From the NCBI RefSeq assembly GCF_056712565.1, contig NZ_CM160072.1: a stretch of DNA of 64,000 bases. The stretch is one strand, 5' to 3'. Shown piece by piece: positions 27,078 to 51,646 of the stretch. Numbering within the stretch: position 1 is the stretch's first letter; each line of letters starts with the position of its first letter. The position numbers and the translations under genes are program-made. The notes beneath the pieces were generated by a model. The model was not told where the DNA came from and did no database searches. It was given only the letters and a program-made list of their open reading frames with translations.

Positions 27078-27860
27078 TTAGGAACTTATCTCTCCATCCT
27101 GACCCGATGGCGCACTGAACTCAACCCTTTCATTTTCAGGAAGCAGACCCCGCCAGCCAAATTGTGATAACGCCTGCATCCAGGTGTCGTCCAGGCCCGC
27201 GTGAATAGTCAGCGGCTCGCCAGTAAAAGGATGCGTCAATGACAACTGACTAGCATGCAGCATTAACCGCTGAAGGCCAAAATGTTCAGCACCGCTGCGA
27301 TTCTGGCGTAAATCACCATGTTTGCTGTCGCCAATAATCGGGTGGCGCAAATGGGCAAGATGGCGACGGAGCTGGTGCTTACGTCCGGTTTTCGGCTCCA
27401 GTTCTACCAGGCCGTAGCGCGTGGTCGGGTAACGTCCGGTCGCTACCGGCATTTCTACGGTCGCCAGACCGCGATAATGCGTCACTGCTGGCTGCGGGCC
27501 TTTATCTTCGCGGGCAAATTTATCAGCGATTTTGTCCAGTTCTTCCACCAGTGGATAATCCAGCACCGCTTCTTCCATCAACCAGCCGCGCACAATCGCA
27601 TGGTAACGTTTCTGGATTTGGTGCTGTTCAAACTGTTGTGCCAGCAGCCGTCCGGCCTCGCTGGATAATCCCATCAACAACACACCAGAAGTGGGTCGGT
27701 CCAGACGATGAGCAGTAAACACATGCTGGCCTATCAGGTCACGCACGGTTTGCATGACCACTACTTTCTCGTCGCGATCCAGCCAGCTGCGGTGAACCAG
27801 CCAGCCGGAGGGTTTATTTACCGCAACCAGCCATTCATCCTGATAGAGTATTTCCAGCAT
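27078..27860 (-). CDS. truC: tRNA pseudouridine(65) synthase
   Basis: 260 aa, RluA-family motifs ([12 protein letters not shown]). Confidence 0.9.
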
Positions 27861-28189
27861 TAGCTCGCATCATCCGCAAAAAGAGCATCCAGTTTTTCCA
27901 GCTCAGCCAGAATAAGCGCGCGTTGCGGATGATCAGTCGCCAGCGCCATTTCATAATAGGGCGCAACAGCAAAAGCGCCCGGTAACGGCTGGTTGTTATC
28001 TAACAAATCGTGCATCCGCGGAATCAGTACCCATTGCAACCACTCCAGTGGTTCCATGGTGTCCATAAAGAACGGCTGGGTACTCGCAAATTGATGCGGC
28101 AGGGGTTCATCGTTTCGCCAGTGCTGATGTTCACGCAGTAACGCTTCAAGCGCCTGCAACTGGAGACGAACGCGGTCATGAGTGGTCAT
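27860..28189 (-). CDS. yqcC: DUF446-family protein
   Basis: 109 aa; start codon overlaps truC stop. Confidence 0.8.
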   Translation of the reverse strand: MTTHDRVRLQLQALEALLREHQHWRNDEPLPHQFASTQPFFMDTMEPLEWLQWVLIPRMHDLLDNNQPLPGAFAVAPYYEMALATDHPQRALILAELEKLDALFADDAS

Positions 28190-28232
28190 AAAGCAACCTC
28201 AATAAGAAAAACTGCCGCGAAGAATAGCAGGA

Positions 28233-28600
28233 ATAAAAAAAGGGAGCACTGTATTCACAGTGCTCCCGGTTCGTTTCGCAGCATTCCGGCTACTTTTGTT
28301 GCTCCCTGCTCATCCTTGACAACTTTTCCTCTGGCCTTGCGGCCAATCGTTCATCCTGAACTATTGCTTCCTGCTCACACCACCCCGATGTGATACTTCA
28401 TCCTGAAGTGTTCCTGGCCTTCCTGACCCACCGAATCATCCTGACCGGTTCTCATTCTCCATCCTGGAGGTGTCCTTTAACGCGTCCTGCGTCATCCTCT
28501 TCGCTTCATCCAGAAGCCTTTCCCTGAAACACCATCCTGGTGTGTCCTTCAGAAGTGTCATCATCCTGATGTTCACTTCGTTGTCTGACTCCCTGTCGAC
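28233..28600 (-). ncRNA. csrB: CsrB small RNA (CsrA-sequestering)
   Basis: More than a dozen catcct(g) motifs on the + strand (CAGGAUG/AGGA on the transcript). 5' end reads GUCGACAGGGAGUCAGACAACGAAGUGAACAUCAGGAUGA on the minus strand. Terminator hairpin gggagcactg...cagtgctccc plus U-run at 28233-28266. Confidence 0.9.
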
Positions 28601-28810
28601 GAAGATAGAATCGTCTTTTTCTCGAAGTCTTACAAGGCGCTTACAGACAATGCCTTAAGGATAATTTCATATGAAAGTTAAGAATTAACAAGCAACATTT
28701 TGTTTTTAAATGAAAATAACGATTCTTATCTTTTTAAGTATTCGCTTATTTCCTGGCGATCTCCTACAGAGTCTGTAAGAGATCTCTCACAACCAGATGG
28801 GGTATTTGGA

Positions 28811-29356
28811 TTACAGAAGAGGCTTAAGTTGATTAAGGAATTCCGCAAGATTTGAGGCTAAATGCGTCCGTTTACGTGTTCCCAGCGTCTCTTTGCACAC
28901 TTCACCGGAGAGATTACACACCGAGATGACCTCTAACTCTTCTTCCAGCGTCGCGATAAATAGCGTGGGCGGCAGTTTTAGCCTTTTCTGAGTCACCAGA
29001 TGACCAATCAGATTTTCCTGCACCCGACGGAAGTCGTCTTCACTCCAGGTTTGCAGCAATGTCAGTTTGATATCGCCAAACTGCGCGTGCATATCCCCGG
29101 CAAACTGAGTCGTATAAAAGGTATGAATCGTGGGTTGTATCACAATATCAAAAGCGCGTTCAACCGCGTTTACATTTTGTTCCCCGGTAAACGGCTGGGG
29201 TTGCCAGTATACGGCATCTTCGGTAGTTGAAATAATGCACGGTGAAGGAACGCCGTACAGTTCCTCACTTAACGGCCAGCTTTTATGCTCTTCATGCCAC
29301 GCATCGCAGTAGCGTGCAGTAAAATCTTTCAGGGCTTGTGCGGTCAAATCGTCCAC
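28811..29356 (-). CDS. syd: SecY-interacting protein Syd
   Basis: 181 aa; synteny. Confidence 0.9.
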
Positions 29357-51349: not shown

Positions 51350-51426
<77 letters not shown>

Positions 51427-51459
51427 ATTAAAATTTGATGAAGTAAAGCAGTACGGTGA

Positions 51460-51536
<77 letters not shown>

Positions 51537-51569
51537 ATCAAAATTTGATGAAATAAAGCAGTACGGTGA

Positions 51570-51646
<77 letters not shown>

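Follow-up and report, generated by a model that had tools for sequence, protein, structure and literature searches.

The 621-bp gap between yqcC and syd in the window, by which we mean the whole 64-kb stretch of DNA that was analyzed, contains the gene for a non-coding RNA on the same strand as both neighbors. The order of the genes is that of Escherichia coli K-12 MG1655, with syd upstream and yqcC downstream, and 42 nt separate the 3′ end of the RNA gene from the yqcC start codon. The three genes are as follows.

27860..28189, minus strand: yqcC, the downstream neighbor (Pfam DUF446, E value of 4.8e-34).
28232..28600, minus strand: csrB, with its 5′ end at 28600 and its 3′ end at 28232 within the U-tract, as placed by Rfam and by mapping of K-12 b4408.
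28811..29356, minus strand: syd, the upstream neighbor (Pfam Syd, E value of 3.4e-73).

The Rfam model for CsrB (RF00018) matched positions 28232-28591 of the minus strand over its entire length (model positions 1-356 of 356), with a score of 381.7 bits and an E value of 4.9e-111, compared with a gathering score of 71 bits. The ncRNA csrB of the curated MG1655 record (b4408, 369 nt) aligned to exactly 28232-28600 and was identical at 365 of 369 positions (98.9%). The four substitutions relative to K-12 are A for C at 28549, A for G at 28412, C for U at 28288, and A for G at 28261. The only one located in a stem converts a terminator G-U pair to A-U, and all four leave the number of GGA motifs (22) and of CAGGAWG motifs (8) unaltered. 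The 801 bp around csrB were 100% identical to the sequence of E. coli ATCC 11775 / DSM 30083 and to those of many extraintestinal pathogenic isolates. We are about 97% confident that 28232-28600 on the minus strand represents E. coli csrB, which specifies the 369-nt non-coding RNA CsrB. This is an already known and ordinary gene, and nothing about it is biologically new; CsrB has been characterized since 1997. The gene for its protein partner, csrA, is not within the 64-kb window.

The RNA strand is dense in the motifs expected of CsrB. Exact copies of CAGGA(A/T)G number eight between 28352 and 28568, all on the minus strand; the motif averages 0.15 per 369-nt window and reaches its maximum of 8 at the csrB locus only. 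Across the whole 64-kb window there are 45 copies, versus 13.8 ± 3.3 expected from shuffles. For GGA itself, the counts within 28232-28600 were 22 on the minus strand and 2 on the plus strand, against a window-wide mean of 4.7 (standard deviation, 2.4) per 369 nt. When GGA was counted in sliding windows, the minus-strand peak of 22 fell exactly on 28232-28600, and the highest plus-strand count was 14. A total of 22 GGA sequences has also been published for E. coli CsrB (PMC7652899), in agreement with the count at the locus. Four features of the RNA are referred to below.

28352..28568, minus strand: cluster of eight CAGGA(U/A)G repeats, the predicted core of a CsrA-binding body whose GGA motifs span 28264-28592.
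28450..28477, minus strand: the most conserved block, AGGACACCUCCAGGAUGGAGAAUGAGA, a hairpin with GGA in its loop; its columns are invariant or nearly so in 17 species.
28268..28276, minus strand: segment AAACGAACC, directly 5′ of the terminator and unpaired in both the minimum free energy (MFE) and the consensus folds.
28232..28267, minus strand: intrinsic terminator, composed of a stem-loop (28242-28267) and a U-tract (28232-28241).

The MFE of CsrB was -117.7 kcal/mol, whereas dinucleotide shuffles gave -97.3 ± 5.8 kcal/mol (z = -3.5). The MFE fold is a chain of 16 small hairpins, 13 of which carry GGA in or at the loop. Sorted by motif, 13 of the 22 GGAs lie in hairpin loops, 6 lie in single-stranded linkers, and 3 are partly or fully paired. 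The 4-bp stem of the hairpin at 28450-28477 reads CG/UA/CG/CG in 17 of 17 species. Segment AAACGAACC is identical to that of K-12 and nearly invariant in the 17 species, with ACGAA invariant in all of them, and these bases (28268-28276) may be the segment in which RNase E cleaves before the terminator. The terminator stem (28267-28242) has 11 pairs, of which 7 are G-C, and a loop of 4, and it is followed by the tail TTTTTTTATT (U7); compensatory changes are found in this stem in other species. Every feature of membership in the RF00018 family that could be tested was found at the locus, namely, the score, exposure of the GGA motifs, a terminator, and no conserved reading frame.

These data bear out the initial annotation, which had assigned the yqcC-syd intergenic region to the CsrB sRNA, had described a minus strand dense in CAGGA(U/A)G-type motifs and closing in a clean terminator, and had named two checks: a covariance-model search, in which the lack of a match would have spoken against the assignment, and an alignment to K-12 csrB. 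The search returned the full-length match, more than 300 bits above the gathering score, and the alignment returned near identity between the same neighbors. The boundaries given there, 28233-28600, agree with ours on the 5′ side but stop 1 nt short at the 3′ end, which both the K-12 annotation and Rfam place at 28232.

Upstream of the RNA, the minus strand carries the elements of a UvrY-responsive promoter. Positions with a sign are relative to a +1 at 28600.

28774..28791, minus strand: candidate binding site for phosphorylated UvrY, the 18-nt inverted repeat TGTGAGAGATCTCTTACA at -191 to -174, matching the footprinted K-12 site.
28760..28768, minus strand: accessory partial repeat TGTAGGAGA, 5 bp downstream of the UvrY box.
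28693..28705, minus strand: IHF-consensus-like site AAACAAAATGTTG at -105 to -93, with one mismatch to the consensus.
28640..28645, minus strand: TGTAAG half-site at -45 to -40, matching one arm of the UvrY inverted repeat.
28605..28635, minus strand: core promoter region, with TTGTAAGA at -35 to -28 (28628-28635) and ATTCTAT at -11 to -5 (28605-28611).

The repeat TGTGAGAGATCTCTTACA has a single exact match in the 64-kb window, versus 0.02 expected, and is identical in K-12. Its center lies at -183/-182, and Zere et al. found that phosphorylated UvrY protects the csrB inverted repeat in DNase I footprints with the same center (PMC4682653). An 18-nt inverted repeat far upstream is the arrangement of a BarA-UvrY-type promoter, and with the exact repeat present, UvrY would be expected from the sequence to bind the window allele as well. 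The accessory partial repeat has been described for the csrB genes of E. coli and Salmonella (PMC4682653). Nearer the gene, a second TGTAAG copy occurs at 28629-28634 (-34 to -29), within the -35 block, and both half-sites fall inside the promoter-proximal zone of UvrY crosslinking in ChIP-exo, published as -56 to +25 (PMC4682653). The TTGTAAGA and ATTCTAT blocks, which lie outside the bases used to retrieve the cross-species loci, were invariant in nine species, and we infer that they are the promoter hexamers. A scan of 28100-28900 for consensus sigma-70 promoters returned no sites; the absence of a consensus fits a weak, activator-dependent promoter and is not evidence against a gene. Two minor features were seen at this end of the locus. 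An inverted repeat, GACGA-N8-TCGTC, at 28598-28615 spans -15 to +3 and overlaps ATTCTAT, and it may be due to chance. Terminator-like hairpins on the plus strand at 28242-28267, 28456-28470, and 28598-28615 are mirror images of CsrB hairpins or of this small promoter repeat, and they were set aside because there is no plus-strand gene upstream for them to terminate.

The IHF-like site is one of the places where the upstream region departs from K-12. In the work of Zere et al., UvrY crosslinks in two zones, and a putative IHF site was assigned to the interval separating them (PMC4682653); AAACAAAATGTTG is located in the same interval, suggesting that it is the site that they described. The IHF consensus is not enriched in the window (62 matches versus 54 expected), and because the motif alone is uninformative, the assignment of 28693-28705 draws on position, conservation, and the published description. 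K-12 has the perfect consensus, AATCAAAATGTTG, at this site. The 210 bp upstream of the gene contain four substitutions relative to K-12, one of which (T to A, giving A at 28703) breaks the core of the IHF consensus. The TCAA of this core was kept in 6 of the 9 sequences compared, and the A of the window looks derived because E. albertii and most of the other genera keep TCAA. A second change relative to K-12, C at 28692, was observed 1 nt downstream of the IHF-like site (28692-28705, minus strand, -105 to -92, when both changes are included). The exact 121-bp upstream allele (28640-28760) was present in 191 of 5425 complete E. coli genomes, and this minority promoter allele could alter IHF-dependent csrB expression and hence the Csr set-points in this lineage. 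The window csrB thus has in common with K-12 csrB its 369-nt length, its neighbors, its 22 GGA motifs, its terminator, and a UvrY inverted repeat at an equal distance from +1, and it differs by four substitutions in the RNA and four upstream, including the T-to-A change in the IHF-like core.

A csrB match of at least 95% identity was found in 5425 of 5426 complete E. coli genomes. The remaining genome had no match, and one match lay on a record labeled as a plasmid. About 70 E. coli genomes had two csrB places, with at least one copy partial or split (for example, H40, at 75% coverage). These odd copy numbers and placements could be insertions or problems of assembly and labeling.

When one genome per species was searched, the 18-nt UvrY box turned up in at least 120 stretches, among them sequences of Enterobacterales, Vibrionaceae, and Shewanellaceae. 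Because an exact copy of this box was the criterion for choosing the cross-species loci, its invariance among them is built in and was not counted as evidence. Full-length RF00018 matches were present at 16 of the 16 Enterobacterales loci examined, with scores of 164 to 380 bits and at about 180 nt downstream of the box. These 16 homologues carry 20 to 28 GGAs on the RNA strand and 1 to 3 on the other strand. Three elements were invariant across the species compared: the CCUCCAGGAUGGAG hairpin, the 3′ domain, and the ACGAA that precedes the terminator. Compensatory double changes occurred in 23 of the 50 pairs of the consensus structure. The CsrB/RsmB RNAs of Enterobacterales (Citrobacter, Klebsiella, Enterobacter, Serratia, Erwinia, Pantoea, Dickeya, and others) thus have the CCUCCAGGAUGGAG hairpin, the 3′ domain, the terminator, and the 18-nt box in common with the window gene. 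They differ from it in the central part, where whole GGA hairpin units have been gained or lost, giving overall lengths of 311 to 391 nt, and in stem sequences, which differ through compensatory changes. The CsrB of Pseudescherichia vulneris (L058:3729-4119) is 391 nt long and contains an extra tandem GGUUUAUGGAUGAACA hairpin unit (alignment columns 260 to 276), illustrating how the family grows by duplication of GGA modules. The exact E. coli box TGTGAGAGATCTCTTACA also recurs in Vibrio (loci L005-L007, L053-L055, and L060-L062), with up to three separate loci per genome, and in Shewanella (L029, L030, L050, and L075). Multiple boxes per Vibrio genome would be consistent with several Csr sRNA genes that each carry the box.

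Four open reading frames (ORFs) overlap csrB.

28178..28393, plus strand: spurious antisense ORF of 71 aa, with no Pfam match and with stops in 7 of 16 other species.
28390..28527, plus strand: spurious antisense ORF of 45 aa, with no Pfam match and absent from the protein collection.
28470..28658, plus strand: spurious antisense ORF of 62 aa, with no Pfam match and with a stop already in E. albertii.
28436..28576, minus strand: spurious sense-strand ORF of 46 aa with a GTG start and no Pfam match.

The most serious alternative is that one or more of these frames (the 71-aa or 62-aa antisense ORF or the 46-aa sense ORF) is a genuine small-protein gene, either replacing the RNA or alongside it. 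The frames do exist, and gene finders have called two of them, which now stand in public databases as hypothetical proteins. The 71-aa sequence has NCBI entries under that name (e.g., KEJ09146.1) and belongs to a 636-member cluster; in E. coli 536 the 46-aa sequence is listed as ECP_2774 (ABG70763.1), and it also has a UniRef entry. The exact 62-aa and 45-aa sequences were not found in the protein collection. Conservation was assessed from the longest tblastn HSP per species, in which a stop-free partial alignment is no proof of an intact frame. By this measure, none of the overlapping ORFs was open throughout the 16 other species, whereas the RNA features persisted, with the nucleotide-level features conserved in all 17 species. 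In addition to the stops in the two longer antisense frames, the 46-aa frame was open over its full length in E. albertii and Citrobacter alone; elsewhere it was interrupted or undetectable. Long open frames are also what composition alone would produce. The CsrB RNA strand is 64% purine and 18% T, and stop-free runs of 52 to 127 codons occur at the csrB locus in every species, with the frames differing. Because purine-rich, low-T composition depletes stop codons on both strands, it is a sufficient explanation for these phantom ORFs. Finally, neither RefSeq (PGAP) nor the curated K-12 record has a CDS at csrB. These data support the conclusion that the ORFs overlapping csrB are artefacts and not proteins, and we regard a genuine small-protein gene as highly improbable. 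The same low probability attaches to a dual-function CsrB in the Escherichia/Citrobacter lineage, in which the 46-aa ORF (28436-28576), open in E. coli, E. albertii, and Citrobacter, would be translated.

The initial annotation had already advised against annotating the 71-aa and 62-aa ORFs as proteins, and the lack of Pfam matches and of frames open across the 16 species upholds that advice. It had also placed both ORFs inside csrB. Both exist and overlap the gene, but neither is contained in it: they are antisense frames on the plus strand that overrun its ends, the 71-aa ORF by 54 nt beyond the csrB 3′ end, where it overlaps the first yqcC codons, and the 62-aa ORF by 58 nt into the csrB promoter. 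Its statement that the locus is misread by ORF finders is true of the 71-aa ORF, which was deposited as KEJ09146.1, and not of the 62-aa ORF, whose exact sequence is missing from the collection. The publicly deposited sense-strand ORF of 46 aa was not mentioned in the initial annotation. At 90% clustering, this phantom ORF of 46 aa is grouped with a 637-aa JGI "hypothetical protein" (P0018, from a 2276-bp contig), which is probably an artefact of gene calling on so short a contig.

A second alternative is that the window carries a decayed or nonfunctional csrB that has lost its expression or its ability to bind CsrA. Such a copy would be in keeping with the differences from K-12 (four within the RNA and four within the 210 bp that precede it), with the broken core of the IHF consensus, and with the rarity of the exact 121-bp upstream allele. 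However, the gene retains its full set of 22 GGA motifs together with an intact terminator, UvrY box, and invariant -35 and -10 blocks, and it is present as a single copy at the orthologous site. Many independent isolates, the species type strain among them, share the 801-bp sequence exactly, and the Rfam score is equal to or above those of the other species. We consider decay extremely unlikely.

The chance that the locus encodes a different Csr/Rsm clan member, such as CsrC, is negligible: the GGA-hairpin design and UvrY-type boxes are common to clan members, but position and sequence match K-12 csrB itself, and CsrB was the best full-length match (381.7 bits) in the competition within Rfam clan CL00106, in which overlapping matches compete and the best one alone is reported. 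E. coli CsrC acts by the same mechanism and under the same BarA-UvrY control as CsrB, with an imperfect upstream inverted repeat (PMC4682653, PMC7652899); it differs in lying at another locus, in the weaker inverted repeat, and in having no apparent IHF site (PMC4682653). The protein-coding, pseudogene, and CsrC alternatives were all rejected.

The locus is read as an intact csrB, and its mode of action can be proposed from the literature and from its near identity to K-12. In K-12, CsrB binds and sequesters multiple CsrA dimers (PMC7652899), and with 98.9% identity and all motifs retained, the window allele is likely to sequester CsrA as well. The hairpins and linkers of CsrB would display about 22 GGA motifs, mimicking the GGA sites that the CsrA dimer recognizes in mRNA leaders. 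Simultaneous binding of many CsrA dimers by the RNA would titrate CsrA off its mRNA targets, and this titration would relieve CsrA-dependent control of translation and mRNA stability. Transcription from the weak csrB promoter would be activated by phosphorylated UvrY at the inverted repeat at -191 to -174, with IHF presumably assisting UvrY by bending the intervening A/T-rich DNA, and would end at the intrinsic terminator. In K-12, carboxylate end products are the signal to which BarA responds by activating UvrY (PMC4682653, PMC7652899). Decay of the RNA would be initiated by RNase E, cutting in the unpaired stretch that immediately precedes the terminator, with CsrD as the gate. In K-12, CsrA bound near the CsrB 3′ end blocks this cleavage, and CsrD together with unphosphorylated EIIA-Glc overrides the block when a preferred carbon source is available (PMC4682653, PMC7652899).

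The practical value of the finding lies in annotation hygiene, since csrB is missing from the records sampled and phantom proteins have been deposited. Among 25 E. coli genomes sampled in RefSeq, the 24 non-K-12 genomes had no feature annotated under csrB, nor did the type-strain record, whereas the K-12 MG1655 record carries a curated ncRNA csrB. Hundreds of "hypothetical proteins" translated from csrB are present in GenBank, in UniRef, and among metagenome gene calls. The cause is a general one. Stop codons become scarce on both strands of a gene for a purine-rich, GGA-repeat RNA, so protein-sponge sRNAs are systematic sources of phantom ORFs.

Other RNA genes were seen elsewhere in the window. 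A full-length GcvB sRNA lies on the plus strand at 46821-47026, 18.2 kb from csrB (Rfam RF00022, 199 bits versus a cutoff of 42). Three identical tRNA-Met (CAT) genes are arranged in tandem on the plus strand at 51350-51646 with a 110-bp period. The first acceptor pair of these tRNAs (C1-A72) was flagged as noncanonical in the Rfam alignment, and a noncanonical pair at this position is a hallmark of bacterial initiator tRNA. The trio is presumably the metZWV cluster.
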